A DNA stretch of 64,000 nt from the NCBI GenBank assembly GCA_964372485.1, contig CAYJQI010000001.1:128001-192000 (forward strand), given 5' to 3'. The notes under the pieces are model-generated. The model was not told the origin of the DNA, did not search any database, and was given only the letters and a program-made list of their open reading frames with translations. A program made the position numbers and the translations under genes. Position 1 is the first letter of the stretch, and each line of letters begins with the position of its first letter. Of the stretch, positions 5,423-16,922 are shown piece after piece. The DNA is from an uncultured archaeon (GTDB taxonomy: Archaea > Aenigmatarchaeota > Aenigmatarchaeia > CG10238-14 > SCSR01).

Positions 5423-7114
5423 CTAATTCTTGGAAAGAATGTAAAATTTAAGTTGTAAATTCTTGAGATCATCTTGATTTTCTATGTAATCGTAAATAGG
5501 ATATTTTTCGTTGCTTTTAACATTTACAAGAGTTGCAACATCTGCCTTATACTCATATTGACATTGCTTAGTGTAAAGATTCTCTCGTAAAGTACATTCT
5601 GGTACAGATTTCAAACTGGAGTAACATCTACCTGTATTTTGGAATTCTTCTGTACCTGATGGGCATTGTTTATCTTCGTATTTAACACATACATCATTTC
5701 CTATATCGAAATCGTATCCATTTGGACAGTTTGGAGAAGCTTTGTATATGTTAACATTTCCATTCTCAATTTCACAATTGTGTGAAGAATCTATCTCATA
5801 CACATTAGACGATGGGCATCCTATTTCACGCGGACATCCTTGATCATAGTAACATGAATTAGTTAATGTATCGTATACAGCAGATGAACAGCTAGAACCA
5901 GTAGATGGGCAAATAGGAGATGCTTTGACGACACATCTACCATTTTCTTCACTTCCTTCCAAACATAACTTGTCTGTATATTGTTCACAAAGTTCTGTTG
6001 AACCACTTCCTGTTATTATAGATGTGCAAGGAACACATATGTCATTTTGATTAGCTATTCTACCATTCAATTCGACTGTTCTTTGCGAATCACCTAATTT
6101 AACAGGATGGGATCCAATACATTTTTGTTCTATGCACCCACATTCTAAGCTACTTATTGAACTTTGCACTAAACAGGTATCTTCATTTTCAAATTCTATG
6201 TTGGTTTTGATATTGGATAGGGTAACATCTGTAGATAATTCGACTAATGAATCAACAAAATTAATTGTTTCGATATTGTTTGTTAATTTTGAAATGAATT
6301 CTGTTTTACAAGTTTCAGGAAACATCTCTCTTTTTGTGGGGTAAGTAAATTTGGAATTAGGACTATAACATCCATCGTAACGAATCATTTCACAATTTCC
6401 TGAAAGGTTATCATTATTTAATTTAGTTTTAACATCTACCATTCTCATTTGAGAAGCAGATAAAACTATTTTATCATCTATAGGATCATCAGTTCCTAGG
6501 AAAATTTCTTTTGCATTATCAATTAAACTATTTACAATAACTGATACTGTTTTCTCGATAGATGCATCTGTAGAAATTTCTAGATTAGTATTCTGAAATT
6601 TTATTTTATTATTAGTAACATCAGATGTAAAAACTGCAAAAATTTTATTTTTGTTTATCGTGAGGAATGGAACTGAAAATTCAGGCACTTCTAATTGCGG
6701 ATAAAGGTCTCTCATTGATTTAACATATTCAAAGAATAAAAGTGGTAATTTTTGTTGAAGTTTCAGCTGAATTAGATCTATTTGATTCTCGATACATATT
6801 TCATCATAAACTCTCCAATATGGAAGATCAGTTGGAAAATCTACAAGTTGATCTGAATCACAATTTCCTTCATAGTTTTCTACATAACTTCCTGTTTTTA
6901 GTACATCATAAATTCCATGATAGATTGAAAATAATGCGGCAATTGAAAATGTATTTTTAATGGAATTTATTTGATTCATAGATTCGATTATATTTCTTTC
7001 ATTAACACCTTTGGAAATGGATTGAACCTGATAAGCAAAATTAAATGATATTACACCTATCACAACTACGGTGCTAACAGCTGCAATAACTGCAATGTTT
7101 ATAGCTGCCTTCAT
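5423..7114 (-). CDS. large pilin-like / adhesin-like secreted protein, Cys-rich
   Basis: 563 aa. N-terminus MKAAINIAVIAAVSTVVVIGVISF is class III signal-like. The C-terminal ~330 aa are very Cys-rich (e.g. CPSTGSSCSS..CYYDQGCPREIGCPSS). 4-nt ATGA overlap with the upstream gene. Confidence 0.6.
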   Translation of the reverse strand: MKAAINIAVIAAVSTVVVIGVISFNFAYQVQSISKGVNERNIIESMNQINSIKNTFSIAALFSIYHGIYDVLKTGSYVENYEGNCDSDQLVDFPTDLPYWRVYDEICIENQIDLIQLKLQQKLPLLFFEYVKSMRDLYPQLEVPEFSVPFLTINKNKIFAVFTSDVTNNKIKFQNTNLEISTDASIEKTVSVIVNSLIDNAKEIFLGTDDPIDDKIVLSASQMRMVDVKTKLNNDNLSGNCEMIRYDGCYSPNSKFTYPTKREMFPETCKTEFISKLTNNIETINFVDSLVELSTDVTLSNIKTNIEFENEDTCLVQSSISSLECGCIEQKCIGSHPVKLGDSQRTVELNGRIANQNDICVPCTSIITGSGSTELCEQYTDKLCLEGSEENGRCVVKASPICPSTGSSCSSAVYDTLTNSCYYDQGCPREIGCPSSNVYEIDSSHNCEIENGNVNIYKASPNCPNGYDFDIGNDVCVKYEDKQCPSGTEEFQNTGRCYSSLKSVPECTLRENLYTKQCQYEYKADVATLVNVKSNEKYPIYDYIENQDDLKNLQLKFYILSKN

Positions 7115-7539
7115 CCTGTTTCAATCCTCACAAGTTTTATTTGAGATGATGAATCTGGATTGTAAGGTAATGCGATAGAGGTTGTAAAAATATACTTCTT
7201 TTCACATTGGCCATTTTCTGCTATTGTTTCATATGAATCTGGTAATCCTATTTTCAAAGAATAACAATCGGATATTTTATCTAATTCGATTTTTATAAAA
7301 CTGAGATCTACACTATCATATTCACTCTCTGATATTATTTGAGAAACTGTTTTGCCATTGTGAGTAGAAGATAACAATGAAAATAGTGTATACTGTGCAT
7401 TTTCATATTCGTATGTAAGTGATAGTTCACTATCAAGAACTGTTTTAACTATTGAAGGAGGTAATATTCCAAATGCAACTATTGTTGCCGTTGCTATCAA
7501 ACCGATAACTGGTATATCTGCAATTGTTTGTCCTTTCAT
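7111..7539 (-). CDS. pilin-like protein (class III signal peptide)
   Basis: 142 aa starting MKGQTIADIPVIGLIATATIVAFGIL. 4-nt overlaps on both sides. Confidence 0.55.
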   Translation of the reverse strand: MKGQTIADIPVIGLIATATIVAFGILPPSIVKTVLDSELSLTYEYENAQYTLFSLLSSTHNGKTVSQIISESEYDSVDLSFIKIELDKISDCYSLKIGLPDSYETIAENGQCEKKYIFTTSIALPYNPDSSSQIKLVRIETG

Positions 7540-8084
7540 TCAATCACTGTAACTTTTAACATGGCGATATGAACACTCCCATCTGGGTATCGTATGTTTA
7601 CAGGAAAACTATTTCTATCGAATATTGATGTAAACCTTTTAGAACATGCTTCGTATGACTGATCCGTTTGCACGAGCATACAACTTACAAAATCTTTTAC
7701 TCTCTGACTACTATCATTTTTCAGATAGAAACTGTAAGTAGGTGCGATGATACTTTTGTCTTCAATTGTAACCAAAGCAATTGTATCGGGATAGTGAACA
7801 CCAACTTTGGATGTATCAGAATTCACACCACTAGATATTGAATCTAATTTTGTTTTATCAAAAATTCCAATTTCATGTAAACCATCATTTGAATATAATA
7901 AATTTTCATTTCGCATTAGAGAGTTGGCTAGAATTATTGCTTTATTTTCCAATTCAATAGCGTCGATATGCGGAGTGACTTTTATTGCATTTGCAGGTAT
8001 CATTGTTGGCAAAACGATTCCAGCTAATACACCTGTCATCAATAGAGAAAATAATCCGACAACAGATTCTTGACCTTTTTTCAT
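7536..8084 (-). CDS. pilin-like protein (class III signal peptide)
   Basis: 182 aa starting MKKGQESVVGLFSLLMTGVLAGIVL. Abuts the upstream gene with no spacer. Confidence 0.55.
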   Translation of the reverse strand: MKKGQESVVGLFSLLMTGVLAGIVLPTMIPANAIKVTPHIDAIELENKAIILANSLMRNENLLYSNDGLHEIGIFDKTKLDSISSGVNSDTSKVGVHYPDTIALVTIEDKSIIAPTYSFYLKNDSSQRVKDFVSCMLVQTDQSYEACSKRFTSIFDRNSFPVNIRYPDGSVHIAMLKVTVIE

Positions 8085-8450
8085 TTACTCGACCTTTTCT
8101 ATGGAAGATTTAGATATCAATATGGAACTAACTGCATCAGGGCCAAAGTTAATTAATGAAGTTGTTTTTGATATGGCCCATTCTTCTTCTGTACTGACAT
8201 TTACATAACCACCACTTGCAGAAAGTTTGTAATTGACTTCTTCTGGAAATCTATAACTAATCTTAACATCATCTGAGTTAGCAATACTCATCAAATCTGC
8301 TACTTCTGCAGCCTTTTCTATGACTGAAGTTTTGGAAAGAACTAATTGTATATCTTCTATCATTCCTGGAATTCTAGATACAGTTAAAGCCCCAATAACA
8401 GCAAAACCTATTATTGTAATTGTACTTGTAACTGCACTACCTTTGAGCAT
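8085..8450 (-). CDS. pilin-like protein (class III signal peptide)
   Basis: 121 aa starting MLKGSAVTSTITIIGFAVIGALTV. Confidence 0.55.
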   Translation of the reverse strand: MLKGSAVTSTITIIGFAVIGALTVSRIPGMIEDIQLVLSKTSVIEKAAEVADLMSIANSDDVKISYRFPEEVNYKLSASGGYVNVSTEEEWAISKTTSLINFGPDAVSSILISKSSIEKVE

Positions 8451-8473
8451 AATAATAGTTTGTTTCCGTTAAA

Positions 8474-8758
8474 TTAATTGCGACATTTAGAACTTATGAA
8501 TCCTTGTTCGCAACAAGAATCGATACTGTCGGGTTTGAAAATTTTGTATTCAGTACATCCATCATTCCATTCAGAAGAAGGTCGTGTACCACTATTCAAT
8601 GCACTACAATAACTGATGAGACTTGCTTTACAAGAAGCTTGACTTGTTGTAAACTTTGTTGTATCTATCCAACCCCAGAAAATAGCGATTATGAAAAATA
8701 GAGAAATAGCGATCACACCTATAAGAAAAACGGCATGGACTGCAATTCCCTTTAACAT
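8474..8758 (-). CDS. small Cys-rich pilin-like protein
   Basis: 94 aa starting MLKGIAVHAVFLIGVIAISLFFIIAIF. Six Cys, including the C-x6-Y-C motif (SCKASLISYC) shared with three other small pilins in the operon. Confidence 0.55.
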   Translation of the reverse strand: MLKGIAVHAVFLIGVIAISLFFIIAIFWGWIDTTKFTTSQASCKASLISYCSALNSGTRPSSEWNDGCTEYKIFKPDSIDSCCEQGFISSKCRN

Positions 8759-8781
8759 AGTATAGAATTAAAAATTACAGT

Positions 8782-9021
8782 CTATAAGCTTTTACAGATT
8801 TCATCAGTTACAAGATCACATCCTTCTGGATAGGAAGCTGGTTTCGCTGGTTGTGTACTTGTATATGGTGATCCCCATTGATCACACCACGCTTCTTGAG
8901 CAGCTTTACATTCTGCCTCTGGAATTCTTCCACCGGCAACAAATAACCAATATCCGATCAAACCGATAACAGCAACACCAAGAAGAATTGCTATAATATA
9001 AGGAACTGCTACACCTTTCAT
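8782..9021 (-). CDS. small Cys-rich pilin-like protein (MKGVA.PY family)
   Basis: 79 aa. MKGVAVPYIIAILLGVAVIGLIGYWL is nearly identical to the N-termini of 13135..13428 and 13425..13787. Contains ECKAAQEAWC (C-x6-W-C). Confidence 0.6.
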   Translation of the reverse strand: MKGVAVPYIIAILLGVAVIGLIGYWLFVAGGRIPEAECKAAQEAWCDQWGSPYTSTQPAKPASYPEGCDLVTDEICKSL

Positions 9022-9059
9022 AGAAATAATTTGATTTGGACAGTATTTAAATATTACAA

Positions 9060-10772
9060 TTATTTAACAGTCAAACCATCTATCCATAATTTTTTTGCAC
9101 TAGTTAGAGAAGGTGTGTAATCCACTTCTTCAAAATGTATTTCACTTACGGAATTCCAATCGAATGCTGAGTTTTTACTAAATTCATCTTTATTGATACT
9201 TAATGGGGTATTTTGGAAACTTGTAGTAACACCTGTGATTAATTTCTGTACTTGGTCTCCCCCAAAGTCTCTGAGTATGACTTTGACATCTGTACTTACA
9301 TCAGATTTAATCAAAACTAATAATTCACTTAAGGCAAATGGATTTTGAGACGTGTACACCATATAAACATCATTACTTTCACCTCTGATAGAAAAGTAAC
9401 CCATTATTCTATCACTGGAATCAAGATAAACTGCAGTATTTCTCCCGCTCCATCTATCAATTGATTCAGTTATTGGTTCCGATAATGAACTTCGCATAGG
9501 AAGTGTAACTGTTTTTATCTCTGTTACTTTATATGACCCGGTTGAATCAAATGCAATTCCTTGGAAAGCGTAAGTTGATTCTATTGTATTACATATTATT
9601 GAAAACTTGGTTGAACACGCTACACCTTCGTTTGAACAATCATATTCACCTACTTTTTGACGATCATCAATTGTTTGTTTCGGTATGTCAACATCTTGTA
9701 AGAGACAATAATTCTTATTTCCTTGATGATCCAGGTTCAAATAAAGTGATTTTAGGTCACCATTATCATCTTCTGCTGTAAAGGATATTTCAAATAATTC
9801 ACCTAAATCAACTGATCCTTTAACTTGAAGGTTAGCAGATTTGGGTGGTTGTTGGATTGGAGAAATGTCTGGACCGGTTTTTGTCCATATACCAACATCT
9901 CCGTTAAAATCACAATCCGCTTCTCCAAAATCACTTTCGGCTGAATTTTTACATGTATGCCATACTCCATCTGACCCACATAATACACCATATTTTATTT
10001 TATAACCTCTCAAACCTTTGTTATTTTCCAATGCAGATCTATCTAATAAATTACAAAGGTCACCTTTGGCGCAGGGATCATGAGCTAGTAGAGTTTCGTC
10101 ATCGAAAGGAATACTTAAAACAAAATTGTTTTGAATACAACCAATTCTATCCACAAGATCTAAAAATGTAACTTCCCCATAACAGTTCACATAAGCATTA
10201 GGACCTGCGCAACGTTCACCACCTTGGCAAATAGTTGATACATCCCCTCTCACACATTTATCTCCTTCACCAGCTTTGGTTATTCTTTTGGGAATACAAA
10301 CAGGATTAGGATCTATTAATTTCGATTTTATACATTCGTAAGGTGATGAACATGTATCATCAATCTTAGCACCTGGATAGACATAATAATAACCACCATT
10401 GTCAACAGCTTCATTCGCACTTCCTAAAGATCCTTCATCATTTACGAATAAAACACATCTATCAGTGGGCAATTCTCCTGGAAAGAAAAATGGATTTGTT
10501 CCAAAACCTTCATCGTGTGCAGAGTGATGAACAGCATCTTGTCTTTTTTCTATCAATTCAAATGCCCATATTTCACCGGATGGATCAGCTTCATCACCTT
10601 TCACATGAATTGCGTAACCTTTGTCAGGGATGTCGAATCCTCCAAACATATTCTGTAACCATCCCAACAAATCAACACCAAAAGCTTTTGTAAGAAAAGC
10701 CATTCCAACAATAATAACAGCAACCATCAAGAAAATTTTCATGATCGCTTCTATAGCCATTGCCTTTGACAT
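9060..10772 (-). CDS. large pilin-like / adhesin-like secreted protein
   Basis: 570 aa. N-terminus MSKAMAIEAIMKIFLMVAVIIVGMAFL is class III signal-like. Cys-rich middle region and beta-rich C-terminus. Confidence 0.6.
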   Translation of the reverse strand: MSKAMAIEAIMKIFLMVAVIIVGMAFLTKAFGVDLLGWLQNMFGGFDIPDKGYAIHVKGDEADPSGEIWAFELIEKRQDAVHHSAHDEGFGTNPFFFPGELPTDRCVLFVNDEGSLGSANEAVDNGGYYYVYPGAKIDDTCSSPYECIKSKLIDPNPVCIPKRITKAGEGDKCVRGDVSTICQGGERCAGPNAYVNCYGEVTFLDLVDRIGCIQNNFVLSIPFDDETLLAHDPCAKGDLCNLLDRSALENNKGLRGYKIKYGVLCGSDGVWHTCKNSAESDFGEADCDFNGDVGIWTKTGPDISPIQQPPKSANLQVKGSVDLGELFEISFTAEDDNGDLKSLYLNLDHQGNKNYCLLQDVDIPKQTIDDRQKVGEYDCSNEGVACSTKFSIICNTIESTYAFQGIAFDSTGSYKVTEIKTVTLPMRSSLSEPITESIDRWSGRNTAVYLDSSDRIMGYFSIRGESNDVYMVYTSQNPFALSELLVLIKSDVSTDVKVILRDFGGDQVQKLITGVTTSFQNTPLSINKDEFSKNSAFDWNSVSEIHFEEVDYTPSLTSAKKLWIDGLTVK

Positions 10773-10807
10773 TAATAGTAATTAAATTAGGAAAAATAAA
10801 TAACTGG

Positions 10808-10993
10808 TCAGCATGGACCCGGTATATTACCACCAGGTATAAGTGCACAAACAAAATTCTTCAACCCTTCCAATAATACTCCACTAAAGAACGATGTTAT
10901 CTTTTCGTGAAAGATCCAGATCAGAATTAAAGCCGTTAATGCAAATATGACCGACGTTACAATCCACAATACATCTCCTATAGCTTTTGCCAT
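10808..10993 (-). CDS. small pilin-like membrane protein
   Basis: 61 aa starting MAKAIGDVLWIVTSVIFALTALILIWIF. Its ATG shares one base with the stop codon of the upstream micro-ORF (TAATG). Confidence 0.45.
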   Translation of the reverse strand: MAKAIGDVLWIVTSVIFALTALILIWIFHEKITSFFSGVLLEGLKNFVCALIPGGNIPGPC

Positions 10994-11106
10994 TAGCTAC
11001 CTCCTGTTTTTTTCCATATATTGAATGCAGCAAGTAGAATTAATAATGTGAAAACTAGCATTATCAAAAACCAAAATATATACCCCGTCATGGCCCCCTT
11101 TTTCAT
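10993..11106 (-). CDS. micro-ORF, 37-aa pilin-like membrane peptide (below the ORF-track cutoff)
   Basis: My translation is MKKGAMTGYIFWFLIMLVFTLLILLAAFNIWKKTGGS*. It starts 17 nt after the platform gene, ends in a TAATG overlap with the next gene, and has the same M-K-K-G plus hydrophobic pattern as its neighbours. Confidence 0.35.
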   Translation of the reverse strand: MKKGAMTGYIFWFLIMLVFTLLILLAAFNIWKKTGGS

Positions 11107-11122
11107 ATTTATACATTGAATT

Positions 11123-13102
11123 TTAGACTAATAACTTCTCTAGTGAAATGACAGATGTGAAGAGATAATATGTAAACAAGAGTGTGAATACATACACAAT
11201 ACTACTGTAAAGAAGAGTTTTAGAAATAGTAAGACGTTTTAGAAGACTTTCTTCACCATTCGTGATTGCGCTTACGGTAAATGCGATGATTGCAACTATT
11301 TCCACCAGATAAATCCCAACAAGTAATTGAAAACCGTGGATTGGAATAATATCACTGATATTAACTATTGAAGAAACGACTCCTGTACCAACACCACCCA
11401 CAGGTCCTAAAGCAGATCCTATTGTATTGTAAACTTGATCAAATGCTTCTCCAAGGAAAAGATTAAGTCGTGTCATTACTGCAGTCATTGTTACAACAAC
11501 CCCCGCACTTAACGGAGCAAGAAGTACACTTTGGATATTCATAGTCGATGTAACTTCATCCATCATATTTTTCAGTTCTTCACCTACTTGATGCATATCT
11601 TTCATGTATCGTGAGATAATTACCATGGATTTGGATGCACTTTGCATTCCTTTTTTAGAAGTTTCAACTATAACACGCATGGCAGAGTCTATTATACTCG
11701 ATGGGTAATAGTTAATTGCACCATATTTTTTATCGAAAATCGCATTTTCAAATGTCATTCCAAAAGTTTCAATATTATAGAGTATTTTTTGGAAGAAATT
11801 TGATATTTTTAGATTTTTAATATCGCCTTTCATTCTTCTTAATGCAGTTTCCAATGGGATTCCTCGTAATAACATACTACCGAGTTGGAATAATGCCTCG
11901 GAGAATTCAGTTTCAATTTCTCCAATTTCTTTTCTGAGTTTAATTTTTCTTTTAGTAGAGAAATAAAAATATGTAATAAACCCACCAGCCAATCCAAGCG
12001 TTATTAACATTGATGAGAAGAGTAACTTGAAACTAATTATATTTTCATCACCCACTATACCAAATACACCTAATGCAATCAACGGAAACGAAATCAATAA
12101 GGGAATTATATAAGGTTTCTCATAAAACTTTGTTACATAAAAATCAGGATGTCTACTTAGATCAGGTTGTCGTAAACTGTACGGTCTTTTCTCCAGATAA
12201 CTATTCATGAAAAGGTAAACAATAAGAGGCAGGAAGAAATCATAACCTACAGCAAGGAAGATAGGTTTTATTAAATCTGGTAAAAATCCACTCAAGATTG
12301 GGAAGAAAATTAATCCTATTATCGGCAAAAGAATTCCGAAAGCATTTAGAATAGTAACAGGTTCCTTTAATTGTCTCGAATATTGACGCATTCTATCTTT
12401 AGTTCCATCAAGCATAACAGATACTGCTTCATCCAGAAATCTTTCGCGTTTCTCTTGTGATTCAGCACCAGAATTCTTTATAAGATATATTGCTTCTGAA
12501 AATTCCTTACTATCCCGTTTCCACTTTTCTATAAAAGAATCCAAAGCGTCTTCAATCTTATCATATTTCCTTGTGTAAACTCCCCATAGCAATTCTCGTA
12601 AATCAGTAGACAGTGCACCTTTCAAATTTCTGGATGCAAATCTGACTGCATTTTCCAAATTAGGAGACAAATGCATTGATATACTCATGTAAATCGATGC
12701 AAGGACCATTTCAGATGAAGCGTTTATACGAAATACTGTTGCATAATGATTCGGATAATTTATTAGAAAATAAAATGCAATACCAGTCAATAAAAGAGAA
12801 AAAATTACAGACGAAGGGGTTAACAAGCCTGAACCAGATAGTGAATTAAGAAAGATGAAAATGATTATTGTTGTTAGAAAAACTAATAATGTTCCTATTA
12901 CAGCAAGAGAAAAGGCACCTTTAGGCGTTATCTTGAGATGTGAAAATGTTATAGATTCGGCATATTTTTCTTTCAAACTTTTGAAAGGTTGCAACGGAAA
13001 TATTTTTTCTGAAATATTAGCTAGTTTTTCATATTTAGATAGTTTTTTAGCTAATTTTTCTTCTTTTAGAAATTCTTGATATTCACGCGAAACTACTGGC
13101 AT
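11123..13102 (-). CDS. type IV pilus / archaellum-type platform membrane protein (FlaJ/TadC, T2SS-F family)
   Basis: 659 aa and polytopic. Two cytoplasmic helical T2SSF-like domains (..LSTDLRELLWGVY..; ..FSEALFQLGSMLLRGIPLETALRRM..) are each followed by TM clusters. It lies next to the secretion ATPase. Confidence 0.8.
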   Translation of the reverse strand: MPVVSREYQEFLKEEKLAKKLSKYEKLANISEKIFPLQPFKSLKEKYAESITFSHLKITPKGAFSLAVIGTLLVFLTTIIIFIFLNSLSGSGLLTPSSVIFSLLLTGIAFYFLINYPNHYATVFRINASSEMVLASIYMSISMHLSPNLENAVRFASRNLKGALSTDLRELLWGVYTRKYDKIEDALDSFIEKWKRDSKEFSEAIYLIKNSGAESQEKRERFLDEAVSVMLDGTKDRMRQYSRQLKEPVTILNAFGILLPIIGLIFFPILSGFLPDLIKPIFLAVGYDFFLPLIVYLFMNSYLEKRPYSLRQPDLSRHPDFYVTKFYEKPYIIPLLISFPLIALGVFGIVGDENIISFKLLFSSMLITLGLAGGFITYFYFSTKRKIKLRKEIGEIETEFSEALFQLGSMLLRGIPLETALRRMKGDIKNLKISNFFQKILYNIETFGMTFENAIFDKKYGAINYYPSSIIDSAMRVIVETSKKGMQSASKSMVIISRYMKDMHQVGEELKNMMDEVTSTMNIQSVLLAPLSAGVVVTMTAVMTRLNLFLGEAFDQVYNTIGSALGPVGGVGTGVVSSIVNISDIIPIHGFQLLVGIYLVEIVAIIAFTVSAITNGEESLLKRLTISKTLLYSSIVYVFTLLFTYYLFTSVISLEKLLV

Positions 13103-13134
13103 TAATTAGATTTTGATTTGGAGGGAAATTAAGG

Positions 13135-13428
13135 TTACCTACATTCCGTAGGTGGATTTCCACCCGAGATTGTTTGACAAATAGGACATGCATTGGTTTT
13201 CGGATCAAAACCTGTTCCACATGATCTTCCACAAACTTCTTTCATTGTTGTTTCTTTAGACTCATCTGGAGATGTACACCATGCAAATATCCTTGCGTTA
13301 CATTCGCCTTCTTTAGTAACACAATTTCCTGTTCCCCCACTTGAGATAAGCCAATAACCGATTATAGCTACAACAATGACTCCTATTATTAATGCTATTA
13401 TGTAAGGTATGGCCACTCCTTTCTTCAT
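13135..13428 (-). CDS. small Cys-rich pilin-like protein (MKGVA.PY family)
   Basis: 97 aa starting MKKGVAIPYIIALIIGVIVVAIIGYWL. Nine Cys, including ECNARIFAWC. 4-nt overlap with the upstream paralogue. Confidence 0.6.
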   Translation of the reverse strand: MKKGVAIPYIIALIIGVIVVAIIGYWLISSGGTGNCVTKEGECNARIFAWCTSPDESKETTMKEVCGRSCGTGFDPKTNACPICQTISGGNPPTECR

Positions 13429-13787
13429 CTTTCACATCCGCCCCAAACACCATTCACACATTGTTGTATTCCAGATTCTGTAGGAGAAATTACACAATTA
13501 CGTGTTTGACCATTTGTACATTGTTGAGATCCTGATGGGGTAGTGTAAGAAGGTGTTTCGATGCATTTACCTGTAGAATCTTTTTCTGGTTTAAGCCCTG
13601 GGCATTTAGTTTCATCGAAATTTGATGTAAATCCATTACAATAATTGAAAGCCATTGTATCACATTCTGCTTTATTTCCTACAATAATTGTTTTTCCTCC
13701 TTGGAAAATTAACCAATATCCGATTAAACCAATTATAATTACACCAAGTACAAGCGCAATAACATATGGAATGGCCACGCCTTTCAT
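13425..13787 (-). CDS. small Cys-rich pilin-like protein (MKGVA.PY family)
   Basis: 120 aa starting MKGVAIPYVIALVLGVIIIGLIGYWL. Eight Cys, including ECDTMAFNYC. Confidence 0.6.
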   Translation of the reverse strand: MKGVAIPYVIALVLGVIIIGLIGYWLIFQGGKTIIVGNKAECDTMAFNYCNGFTSNFDETKCPGLKPEKDSTGKCIETPSYTTPSGSQQCTNGQTRNCVISPTESGIQQCVNGVWGGCER

Positions 13788-13806
13788 AGAAATAATTTGA
13801 TTTACT

Positions 13807-16044
13807 TTAACTAATTCTTTTCTTAAACCATTCCAACCATTTGTCGTAAATCATTTTCGAGTCCAAGGCACCAACTTCCTGCCTGACTTGCTCGGAAATT
13901 AGATGGAACATTGCATTCGATTCAACGACATAATCTGCTTCGAGGGATGTATCTCTTCCTGTAGTTGCGGCAAGATTGACCATCGTTTCCTTAATCTTGG
14001 CTCTCAAAAGAATATTATCCCAGACCAAATCCCATTGGCCATGCCATTCCCTGACTCTGCTTGATATTTCATTCAATAATTCAGACTCACCATCTATCAA
14101 AGTAGCGGTAGGTTTTAGTTTGTCTTCTTTTGCAGAATATTCCATGAGATTAATAAATCCTCCTTCATCCATTGGATCGTTCTTCCAATGTTTTCTTACT
14201 TCAGTCAATTCAGTAACTCGCCTAAATCTATGAAGACCATCGGATGATTTCAATTGATTACAAACTGTGATTAGATCCAATGCTTTGAAACTAGTTGGTG
14301 GAACACCTAAATCATGAACCACTCTATCATAAACACCATAAGCAGATTCACCATGAATTGTACCTGCAACGACATTTGCTAATGCACCAATTCTCATCGC
14401 CTCATAGAGTGCAAGTGATTCAACAGATCTTACTTCACCAATAATGAGAACAGAATCTCCCAATCTTAATGCAGTTCGCAAGGCTTCGTCTGCTGGTAAT
14501 TCAGTTTCAACACGAGTAATAACAGAACGTGATTTCATTCTTTCGATATTATATCCTAATTGTCGTAATGAAGTCATTGGAAGTTCGAGTGTATCTTCGA
14601 CAGAAATAATTCTGAACTTCGGCATTATTTCCAACATTAATGATCCGAGAACAGATGTTTTTCCTGATCCACGTCCACCCGCTACAAGTAATGCTCTTCC
14701 ACCATCGATAATAAAACTCATCAGCCCTGCATACAATGGATCGAACATTTTATTTTTAACAAATAATGGAAATGTCCAAGGTTTTTCTCTGTGTCTTCTA
14801 AATGCAAAGGCAAGTCCTTCGGGTGATAATGATTTTGTTATAGCTGCAACTCTTGCTCTTCCCCCAGGGACAAACAATTCAGTATCAAGAACAGGATTTG
14901 ATTCATCTAATGGTCTACCGGAATACAATCTGAATCTCGTTGCCCATGATTCTGCATCTTCGTTTGTAGGAATTAAATTTGTTTCACATTCTTCAAAATC
15001 TCCATGAGTAATGTATATAGGTATTAATCCTATAGGTGCGTTAATGTAGACGTCTTGAATTCTTTCATCTGATAATAATAATTCTAAAATTCCAAATCCT
15101 GCTGTGTAACGTGATAGAATTGTTGCGAGTTCTTCTATCTCAGCTGAAGTTAAATTTACTCCCATGTTTCTTGATATATCACGGATAAGATCTCTTCCAA
15201 GATTTTTGAAAAGTTCTCTAGATTTTTCTGGTTCGACGGATTCTGCTTCTGTTGGACGATGCGCGGCAAGATATCTTCTCGCAGAATCGAGTATTGTATA
15301 TTTTTCATCGCTTAGAACAAATTCTTTTGGAGTTATATGATAAAGATGACGAACTTTTGTTGGAAGTTTGTATATTTCCACATCTGCACCTACCATTGAA
15401 TATTTTTCAACTAATCGTGCTCCTTTCGGAATTGAGAGCATGAATCGGGTGAGCATAAAATTTGGACGGGTTGTTGGTGAAAATAATTCTCTGTATATAT
15501 CTCTACTCCCAAGTTGGTAACTCTGTAGAATCGGCATTGCTTTTTGGATTAATGTACAACCTTCAAGAATATTTTTCATCGGAATTAATGCACTATCAAG
15601 ATATTGACTGAAACAAACTTTCTGTTCTATTGGTGCGGTACCTTCGAGAACTTTATTTGCATTAACCATCTTCACAATTCTCAAATAAGCTCCGATTGGA
15701 TCTTTTCTTAGAACCTCCATTGTTAAAAATTGTAAATCTGCTAATCTTTTTGCGAAAAGTTTTTCACATTGTGTAGGACCGAAGTTTTTGATACTGATTA
15801 TTTTGTCGATATTCAAAATCCTATTGTAAGCATCTGCAATTTCACGTAACATTTTAGTTTGTTCAACATCATATTCATTTTCACGAGCTTCGATTAGAAC
15901 AACTCTGTTAGCTTCCCGAGCTTCAAGTAATTTATCGATAACTACGGCCATTGTTGCATCAGAATCTTCTACACTTGGAGGTATGGCCCAATTCATGCAG
16001 TTTATTCTAAGAGCTCCATCTACCACTTCATACTGTATAGCCAA
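13807..16044 (-). CDS. type II/IV secretion-system ATPase (FlaI / GspE / VirB11 superfamily), first gene of the pilus-like operon
   Basis: 745 aa. Walker A is LVAGGRGSGKTSVLGSL, the Walker B / Asp box region is SVLIIGEVRSVE, and the His box is VAGTIHGES. The N-terminal region is long compared with typical FlaI. Confidence 0.9.
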   Translation of the reverse strand: MAIQYEVVDGALRINCMNWAIPPSVEDSDATMAVVIDKLLEAREANRVVLIEARENEYDVEQTKMLREIADAYNRILNIDKIISIKNFGPTQCEKLFAKRLADLQFLTMEVLRKDPIGAYLRIVKMVNANKVLEGTAPIEQKVCFSQYLDSALIPMKNILEGCTLIQKAMPILQSYQLGSRDIYRELFSPTTRPNFMLTRFMLSIPKGARLVEKYSMVGADVEIYKLPTKVRHLYHITPKEFVLSDEKYTILDSARRYLAAHRPTEAESVEPEKSRELFKNLGRDLIRDISRNMGVNLTSAEIEELATILSRYTAGFGILELLLSDERIQDVYINAPIGLIPIYITHGDFEECETNLIPTNEDAESWATRFRLYSGRPLDESNPVLDTELFVPGGRARVAAITKSLSPEGLAFAFRRHREKPWTFPLFVKNKMFDPLYAGLMSFIIDGGRALLVAGGRGSGKTSVLGSLMLEIMPKFRIISVEDTLELPMTSLRQLGYNIERMKSRSVITRVETELPADEALRTALRLGDSVLIIGEVRSVESLALYEAMRIGALANVVAGTIHGESAYGVYDRVVHDLGVPPTSFKALDLITVCNQLKSSDGLHRFRRVTELTEVRKHWKNDPMDEGGFINLMEYSAKEDKLKPTATLIDGESELLNEISSRVREWHGQWDLVWDNILLRAKIKETMVNLAATTGRDTSLEADYVVESNAMFHLISEQVRQEVGALDSKMIYDKWLEWFKKRIS

Positions 16045-16091: not shown

Positions 16092-16520
16092 ATGGACATC
16101 CCTAACCTTCCGCAATTGCCCTTTGAAAGACACGATGAGGAAGTTTCAAAAATAGTCACAGAGCTTGTTAAAAGAGTGAATGAGGATGTGAGGAGAATAA
16201 GAGTTGTGGAGCAGAGAATTGATAGGTTGGAAAGTTCTGTTGAATCAATTCAAGAAGATACATTGACTCAGTTGAATGATTTGAAAATTGGATTGGAAAA
16301 GATTAACAACAAAATAGTTTCTGTTTCTGAAAAGTTGATGAACATCGAGGGCGAGATTTTAAGATTAAGCAAAGAATTGTCAAAAACCGCAACTAGAAGG
16401 GAATTGAAACAGATAGAAACTTTTATTGATTTGATAAATCCTGTTACAGCGAAATTTGTTACGAAAGAAGAAGTAGAAAAAGCGATTGAAGATAAAGTTC
16501 ATAGATTCAAGAAATCATGA
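16092..16520 (+). CDS. coiled-coil protein, function unknown
   Basis: 142 aa with heptad-rich sequence (RIRVVEQRIDRLESSVESIQEDTLTQLNDLKIGLEKINNKI..). Divergent from the pilus ATPase gene across a 47-nt spacer. Confidence 0.5.
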   Translation: MDIPNLPQLPFERHDEEVSKIVTELVKRVNEDVRRIRVVEQRIDRLESSVESIQEDTLTQLNDLKIGLEKINNKIVSVSEKLMNIEGEILRLSKELSKTATRRELKQIETFIDLINPVTAKFVTKEEVEKAIEDKVHRFKKS

Positions 16521-16922
16521 TTTTGGTAGAATTTGTAATGTTGCTTCAAGTTGAGGATGATCACCTTGGCTTCCTTCAGCACATGTTTTACAATAGATTT
16601 TAAATGAACCGACTTTAGATGCAACAAACTCGATCACATCAGGATTTGATGGTGATGTACTGGTAATCAATGTGTTTATTCCAAATTCGTCAATGGAAAT
16701 ACCATGATCATGTGTAGGTTCTGTTGTAATTGCAAGGAATTTTATTAAATCCCCCTCAGTTGCTGTGAATTTATTAGGTTGGTAACCTCCATGAGTTATA
16801 GCAATATCAAATTCTGTTGTATTTCCGGCAAAAGTTGTCTTACCAGGCATTCCAAAGAAGAATCCAGCGAATAAAATAACCGCTACAAGAAGAATGAGTA
16901 AATATAACTTATTTAATTTCAT
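16515..16922 (-). CDS. membrane-anchored cupredoxin-like domain protein
   Basis: 135 aa with an N-terminal TM helix. 'GGYQPNKFTATEGDLIKFLA..THDHGISIDEFG..GSFKIYCKTC..H' resembles the cupredoxin_1 / EfeO-type pattern (His, Cys, His ligand candidates). Confidence 0.5.
   Translation of the reverse strand: MKLNKLYLLILLVAVILFAGFFFGMPGKTTFAGNTTEFDIAITHGGYQPNKFTATEGDLIKFLAITTEPTHDHGISIDEFGINTLITSTSPSNPDVIEFVASKVGSFKIYCKTCAEGSQGDHPQLEATLQILPKS

Follow-up and report, generated by a model that had tools for sequence, protein, structure and literature searches.

Archaeal type IV pilins such as the Pilin_N proteins (PF07790), MMP1685/EpdE of Methanococcus maripaludis and the Aap and Ups pilins of Sulfolobus have class III signal peptides. 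A canonical type IV pilin combines an N-terminal alpha-helix, its C-terminal half packed on a globular domain, with the antiparallel beta-sheet that makes up this domain, and very small pilins are already known from archaea, for example the short major pilin MMP1685/EpdE. The type IV pilin of Pyrobaculum arsenaticum has one disulfide, Cys80-Cys139 (PMC7347861), and cysteine-rich type IV pilus components have been predicted in Thermoproteales systems (Makarova et al. 2016; PMC4858521), so that cysteine-rich archaeal pilus components are, as an idea, already known. The pilus loci of DPANN archaea hold undetectable 'dark matter' pilins (Makarova et al.; PMC6393860), and an Aenigmarchaeota genome paper mentions pili only in passing (PMC8407114). 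Here we describe a pilus operon in a 64,000-nucleotide stretch (the window) of an 812-kb archaeal genome, about 90% complete. Four of its genes encode small cysteine-rich proteins, pilins 1 to 4. These are probably small type IV pilins that bear class III signal peptides and belong to a lineage-specific family of the phylum Aenigmatarchaeota. What appears to be new is an archaeal type IV pilin variant with a distinctive and strongly conserved four-cysteine scaffold, predicted to be held by disulfides.

The four genes lie on the minus strand at 13425-13787 (pilin 1, 120 amino acids), 13135-13428 (pilin 2, 97 amino acids), 8782-9021 (pilin 3, 79 amino acids) and 8474-8758 (pilin 4, 94 amino acids), as open reading frames (ORFs) already picked out in a preliminary description of the window. 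Pilins 1 to 3 indeed begin almost identically, with MK(K)GVA[IV]PY[IV]IA...GYWL (N-termini: MKGVAIPYVIALVLGVIIIGLIGYWL for pilin 1, MKKGVAIPYIIALIIGVIVVAIIGYWL for pilin 2 and MKGVAVPYIIAILLGVAVIGLIGYWL for pilin 3), and pilin 4, a divergent member, starts MLKG/IAVHAV (here and below the slash marks the predicted cleavage site). The motif C-x6-[WY]-C, which the same description had placed just after the hydrophobic helix, is found there in all four proteins (ECDTMAFNYC, ECNARIFAWC, ECKAAQEAWC and, in pilin 4, SCKASLISYC). Pilins 1 to 4 contain 8, 8, 4 and 6 cysteines, respectively; the earlier counts for pilins 1 and 3 were right, and the nine given for pilin 2 has to be corrected to 8.

The description of these proteins as pilin-type was well founded. 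Like archaeal type IV pilins, they have a short basic leader that ends in K-[GA], class III-like, and then some 25 residues that form a hydrophobic helix; K at -2 and G or A at -1 are near-invariant across the members of the family, as in MKG/VAIPYVIALVLGVIIIGLIGYWLIF. Like archaeal type IV pilin loci, theirs has several paralogous subunits next to an ATPase of FlaI/PilB type and a platform of TadC type, and an A24 peptidase is encoded in the genome. The pilus assembly ATPase (FlaI/TadA/PilB type, 745 amino acids, 13807-16044, minus strand) is the first gene of the operon. It scores against Pfam T2SSE with E 4e-16 and against two NCBIfam models, TadA-family (E 8e-36) and FlaI (E 4e-33); the TadA family scores best, with both NCBIfam scores under their equivalog cut-offs. 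The TadC/PilC-like platform (11123-13102, minus strand) is a polytopic membrane protein of 659 amino acids, whose position beside the ATPase is conserved and which is 70-75% identical within the genus. The prepilin peptidase was recognised by a Peptidase_A24 (PF01478) match above the cut-off (41.6 bits, G000:C1:626915-627256), and Pfam confirmed the 294-amino-acid ORF at this locus (E 3e-10). Judging from motif and context, the peptidase, encoded outside the operon, would cleave after the K-[GA] of the leader of three to four residues, the ATPase and platform would lift the subunits from the membrane into a filament, and the invariant hydrophobic helix, VA[IV]PY[IV]IA..G...GYW, would build the filament core. 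The paralogues would most likely be major and minor structural subunits of one adhesive pilus, which may plausibly serve a host-dependent archaeon in attaching to other cells.

Bacterial systems offer looser parallels. Bacterial type IVa pilins have F1 and E5 and a disulfide loop in the C-terminal D-region, whereas the proteins described here start V-A-I-P-Y, lack Glu at +5 and have a cysteine scaffold that begins on the helix rather than in a C-terminal loop. With the bacterial Flp/Tad pilins they have in common that the subunits are very small and have hardly any globular head or none, as well as an ATPase that scores best against TadA, and G/VAIPY loosely resembles the Flp motif G/xxxxEY, which is a lead only. 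Unlike Flp pilins, however, which are without a cysteine scaffold, they have no Glu at +5 and their Tyr is at +5, not +6; Pfam Flp_Fap gave no match at E <= 1.

A profile of 47 members was searched against 1.84 billion representatives of metagenome clusters; 553 clusters scored at E <= 1e-3, 290 of them at E <= 1e-10. With pilin 1 as the query, a word-indexed search gave just three other clusters. Family members occur in 78 of 301 genomes of the phylum, mostly in the organism's own family and order, at 1-10 copies per genome, and the other orders of the phylum gave weak matches; a six-frame search of relatives found at most nine copies per genome. Pilin 4 aligns with a family alignment built without it at an hhalign probability of 95.8% (E 8e-9). 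The protein encoded at 8085-8450 (121 amino acids) aligns with the family over its first 23 residues only, a signal-peptide-like start, and is not a member. Named relatives with these pilin genes are all Ca. Aenigmatarchaeota or 'uncultured archaeon', and several are metagenome-assembled genomes from groundwater. The source organism is therefore a DPANN archaeon of the Aenigmatarchaeota.

The cysteine pattern is the strongest hallmark of the family. We inspected 152 proteins, comprising the best hits of the profile search and the hits of the word-indexed search, pilin 1 included. C-x7-C is present in 151 of them, with an aromatic residue before the second cysteine in 140 of these 151 (93%), and the shared pattern is well beyond chance. 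The alignments hold four conserved cysteine columns. In the four-cysteine members the first two (C1 and C2) are separated by seven residues in 57 of 57 cases, with 8-37 residues between C2 and C3 and 5-26 between C3 and C4; the rare C-x3-C variants lack about one helical turn and keep the phase. The cysteine count, which ranges from 4 to 18, is even in 150 of the 152 proteins. Of the two odd cases, one has a mis-called start and the other is a fragment whose end is foreign-looking sequence, presumably read adapter. The same bias extends to other exported proteins: genome-wide, proteins with a single N-terminal hydrophobic segment contain 1.61% cysteine, with even counts in 77 of 98 (44 of 51 among those with at least 4 cysteines), and the cytoplasmic proteins contain 0.83%, with even counts in 199 of 464. 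This bias indicates general extracellular disulfide bonding.

The cysteines might instead bind metals or cofactors (zinc, iron-sulfur clusters or haem, for example in a redox-active or conductive filament) and form no disulfides at all. The high cysteine density, the C-x7-C-x2-C found in some subgroups, the cupredoxin-like gene that adjoins the operon and the absence of classical Dsb/VKOR genes would all fit such a role. However, counts of 6, 10 and 14, which are common and not multiples of 4, put the cysteines in pairs rather than quartets and thus argue for predicted disulfides over four-ligand metal sites. Moreover, neither CxxCH nor a conserved His was found in members read by eye or in the conserved alignment columns, only the four scaffold cysteines are conserved, the C3/C4 spacing is highly variable, unlike that of a metal site, and the even-cysteine bias covers exported proteins genome-wide. 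We therefore regard metal or cofactor binding as highly improbable.

Pilins 1 and 3 were modelled with AlphaFold2 on family alignments. The model of pilin 1 (mean predicted local distance difference test (pLDDT) score 69.6) has a helix from residue 7 to 56, which includes C42 and C50, followed by low-confidence coil; that of pilin 3 (mean pLDDT 76.3) has helices at 6-30, 35-49 (with C38 and C46) and 73-78 (with C76). C42/C50 and C38/C46 thus lie inside continuous helices, where pLDDT is about 75-79. In both models the long N-terminal helix is confident, there is no beta-sheet, and the head is of low confidence (pLDDT 51-71). Conserved or hydrophobic positions at 0, +4/+5, +7, +8 and +11 from C1 form one amphipathic helix face, and alignments and models together place C1 and C2 on the hydrophobic face of a predicted amphipathic continuation of the N-terminal helix; C3 and C4 fall in the C-terminal loop and short helix. 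Since C1 and C2 are eight residues apart in a helix, too distant to bond to each other, we infer that each has C3 or C4 as its partner, probably as C1-C4 and C2-C3. Bonded in this way, the tail would be fastened to the helix and would stand where canonical pilins have a beta-sheet head. The predicted exposed part is unusually small, about 45-130 residues, on a conserved four-cysteine scaffold, and longer members gain cysteines in pairs, through inserts or C-terminal extensions. Pilin 3, with C38, C46, C68 and C76, is the minimal family member, and pilin 1 (C42-x7-C50) carries a cysteine-paired C-terminal extension. The head variation across the family consists mostly of loop length and additional cysteine-paired inserts. 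A resemblance of some inserts (CGNG...EECDPP) to the Myxococcus cysteine-rich repeat was considered, for which NCBIfam gave no support.

Intramolecular disulfides, known or predicted, also tie the C-terminal extension to the pilin body in Pyrobaculum and other Thermoproteales. Those pilins, however, belong to hyperthermophiles and have full globular heads, with one bond in the solved structure, whereas the proteins described here come from small-genome DPANN archaea and have 2-9 predicted bonds that make up roughly the whole head; a sequence comparison, made with the solved pilins, detected no relationship. From archaeal type IV pilins in general they differ in the invariant mature N-terminus VA[IV]PY and in a head with a four-cysteine scaffold and, in the low-confidence head models, no predicted beta-sheet. 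In the twin CX3C and CX9C hairpins of the mitochondrial intermembrane space (small Tims and CHCH proteins), two cysteines, whole helical turns apart on one face of a helix, are bonded to partners on a returning segment. The proposed C1-C4/C2-C3 bonds would be analogous to these, as a structural analogy only, between unrelated proteins and on predicted secondary structure; unlike in the hairpins, the partner cysteines are here spaced by 5-26 residues and the returning segment would not be a matching helix.

Several results weigh against this interpretation. Pfam pilin models, PF07790 and related ones included, matched none of the 47 profile members at E <= 0.1; the window proteins matched no Pfam or NCBIfam pilin model at E <= 1, which sets them apart from archaeal type IV pilins recognised by Pilin_N (PF07790) or Class_IIIsignal (PF04021), and NCBIfam pilin models matched neither the window proteins nor eight cysteine-rich relatives. 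The platform's match to Pfam T2SSF is weak (E 0.004, under the cut-off), and none of the RNA runs searched for the pilin genes holds them. The head regions are modelled at the low confidence given above, and the C1-C4/C2-C3 pairing is inferred. As for the enzymes of oxidative folding, searches of the genome for VKOR (PF07884) and the DsbA-type Thioredoxin_4 (PF13462) found neither, and a MauE-family gene (a fusion of a heavy-metal-binding domain with MauE; C1:473696-474289, minus strand), near the thioredoxin-like gene described below, was dropped as a general partner, MauE being present in 2 of 41 relatives only. The family profile gave only chance matches to transmembrane helices among Protein Data Bank (PDB) sequences, and Foldseek found no similar fold in the PDB for either AlphaFold model. 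The statement of the preliminary description that no described family fits has thus held up.

The same results leave room for the proteins not being filament subunits but small membrane-anchored or secreted cysteine-rich surface proteins that merely use a prepilin-type signal; they might be adhesin anchors or docking partners of the two large cysteine-rich proteins of the operon. Archaea do use class III signals on non-pilus proteins, for example on the sugar-binding proteins of the Sulfolobus bindosome, and the ATPase weakly matches BasE (E 6e-13). The lack of any matching pilin family model, and the tiny heads whose predicted fold has no match, would also be in keeping with such a role. Yet the hydrophobic helix is strictly conserved (P+4, Y+5, G+12 and GYW) across hundreds of clusters, which fits polymer packing better, several paralogous small subunits beside an ATPase and a platform are the typical layout of a pilus locus, and substrate-binding domains are absent. 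We consider a non-filament role unlikely, and it is rather to be expected that these proteins function like type IV pilins, outside any described sequence family.

Among candidates for the disulfide machinery, no protein with a [WFY]CxxC motif and a signal was found. The genome does encode, at C1:474829-475629 on the minus strand, a membrane-anchored protein that contains two thioredoxin-fold units, each with CxxC (Pfam Thioredoxin_3, E 4e-7), and this thioredoxin-like protein is conserved in 9 of the 10 other genomes of the genus. From its sequence, it is a candidate extracytoplasmic disulfide oxidoreductase.

The preliminary description had likened the conserved helix and hypervariable heads to an antigenic or receptor-specificity variation set, that is, to interchangeable pilins swapped or selected, by a programme or at population level, for antigenicity or host-receptor specificity. 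Its view of the heads as small, cysteine-rich and fast-evolving is correct, but they do not vary freely, as the four-cysteine scaffold is conserved. Mean pairwise identity is about 20% for heads and about 56% for helices, and heads share 27-40% identity with their closest match among the homologues; for pilin 2 this match is the pilin between ATPase and platform of one relative (G004; 40% head identity, equal cysteine number). In Nei-Gojobori comparisons of the closest orthologue pairs (relatives G002 and G003), head dN (nonsynonymous divergence) is 0.21-0.45, against 0.06 for the ATPase. Such rapid divergence of the heads, compared with the other parts of the operon, would favour a variation set. 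However, fast-evolving heads are usual for type IV pilins (PMC6393860), and with pS (proportion of synonymous differences) at 0.75-0.83 the synonymous sites are saturated, so that dN/dS is not computable in any meaningful way and gives no reading on positive selection.

Family pilins occupy two slots in the operon: slot A, between ATPase and platform, with one to three genes, here pilin 1 ('p1-type') and pilin 2 ('p2-type'), which begins on the last 4 nucleotides of pilin 1; and slot B, after a 570-amino-acid protein, with one four-cysteine pilin, here pilin 3 (6-8 cysteines in a few relatives). Slot-B orthologues are present in all loci of the genus. In a maximum-likelihood tree, paralogues from the same operon slot of different species group together, rather than those of one genome: a p1-type clade (pilin 1 with its G002 and G003 orthologues; support 99/91), a p2-type clade (94/89) and a weak slot-B group (86/50), besides an 'orphan' clade from outside the operon (96/90). 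Orphan copies (L040, L043, L044, L046, L049 and L051, in G001-G003) have 4-14 cysteines and up to 161 amino acids, and are absent from this genome. By this tree the paralogues are ancient and non-interchangeable, each an old lineage tied to its slot, which is what one would expect if their structural roles were distinct.

The differing copy number in slot A (one to three between species) and the orphan copies of some relatives could still be read as traces of a variation set, and a 113-nucleotide 5' repeat common to pilins 1 and 3 could support recombination. This direct repeat (77% identity) includes the 16 nucleotides directly upstream of the ATG, AAATCAAATTATTTCT, which are identical in the two genes (13788-13803 and 9022-9037, minus strand). 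In relatives the leader of the slot-B pilin is different and longer, so pilin 3 may owe the leader it shares with pilin 1 to a small conversion event from slot A. On the other hand, the expression locus with silent truncated cassettes, or switching, that characterises pilE/pilS-type antigenic variation has no counterpart here. The four operon genes are the genome's only family copies, all full-length with their own start codons; neither truncated copies that could act as silent cassettes nor long flanking inverted repeats were seen at the pilin genes, and no recombinase, nor any such Pfam domain, was recognised among the operon proteins. Contigs of four metagenome runs showed zero differences over the parts of the pilin genes that they cover, which is weak evidence, as contigs drop rare variants. 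Together, these observations speak against the variation set proposed earlier, to which we give little credence, and favour distinct structural subunits.

One of these subunits may be the major pilin. A TATA-like box, ATATTTAAATAC, lies at 9043-9054 on the minus strand, about 22-33 nucleotides upstream of the pilin 3 ATG. In most of the genus loci that were examined (L029, L030, L034, L035, L036, L041 and L045) the slot-B pilin is preceded by the same consensus, in some cases with 1-2 changes, which suggests that this pilin has its own promoter. By virtue of this conserved box pilin 3 is a candidate for an independently transcribed major pilin.

A single minus-strand gene run spans 5423-16044 and comprises the ATPase, the platform, about eight prepilin-like ORFs and the two large cysteine-rich proteins; the small ORFs all start M-x(0-1)-K-G and continue with hydrophobic residues. 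Downstream of the platform lies a 37-amino-acid ORF (10993-11106, minus strand; MKKGAMTGYIFWF..., in full MKKGAMTGYIFWFLIMLVFTLLILLAAFNIWKKTGGS), read from the sequence, which has a prepilin-like start and no head and is possibly a headless prepilin-like micro-protein. Its stop overlaps the start of a gene for a single-helix membrane protein of 61 amino acids (10808-10993, minus strand), which every locus of the genus has in this place, with 38-62% identity. The next protein (9060-10772, minus strand; 570 amino acids, 18 cysteines, N-terminal hydrophobic helix) is conserved in position and 24-35% identical; no Pfam domain was found in it by the scan, and it is a candidate large minor pilin or adhesin. 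After pilin 3 and pilin 4, the latter with orthologues at the same position (40-67% identical), come three proteins outside the cysteine-rich family, of 121 (8085-8450), 182 (7536-8084) and 142 (7111-7539) amino acids, all on the minus strand, with an M-x-K-G and hydrophobic start and a gene order conserved in the genus; these are likely minor pilins. The last operon gene (5423-7114, minus strand) encodes a 563-amino-acid protein with 26 cysteines and an N-terminal hydrophobic helix, a candidate adhesin. Across the genus the order is ATPase, one to three family pilins, platform, 61-amino-acid protein, 570-amino-acid protein and one family pilin, then the 94-, 121-, 182-, 142- and 563-amino-acid proteins, and it is kept in every genus locus that spans the ATPase-platform region. 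Identity within the genus is 84-88% for the ATPase, 70-75% for the platform and 24-67% for the exported proteins.

Beyond the operon, a cupredoxin-like gene with a signal-anchor (16515-16922, minus strand) has a coiled-coil gene on either side, in divergent orientation to the gene of the pilus ATPase, and is at the same place in only some of the genus relatives. Elsewhere in the genome there are two more FlaI/PilB-type ATPase paralogues (C1:611012-611875 and C1:313509-314804; 25-31% identical) and, near C1:523080, classical Pilin_N-type genes, one protein of which matches PF07790. The genome therefore holds more than one type IV filament system, and the pilin operon is one of several such loci.

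A more far-reaching proposal can be built on these data, which as a whole we put forward tentatively and with some doubt. In this family the beta-sheet domain of the pilin would be replaced by a minimal helix-plus-loop head, tied by at least two disulfides to the polymerisation helix and open to plug-in cysteine-paired modules; slot-specific paralogues would co-assemble into the thin, oxidatively cross-linked host-attachment pilus of a mesophilic DPANN archaeon; and folding would depend on a so far unrecognised membrane-anchored double-thioredoxin oxidase.

To conclude, DPANN archaea rely on physical contact with host cells. The structures that make this contact are almost unknown, since their components escape annotation (PMC6393860). 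The disulfide-rich pilin family, taken together with the genome-wide even-cysteine bias, suggests that extracellular disulfide chemistry is central to these cell surfaces, despite the absence of a classical Dsb/VKOR system. For one DPANN phylum, the family provides concrete and widely distributed candidate pilus subunits, with a simple sequence signature that could serve as the basis of an annotation model, and it offers a testable structural idea, namely that the head of a pilin may be reduced to a disulfide-stapled loop.

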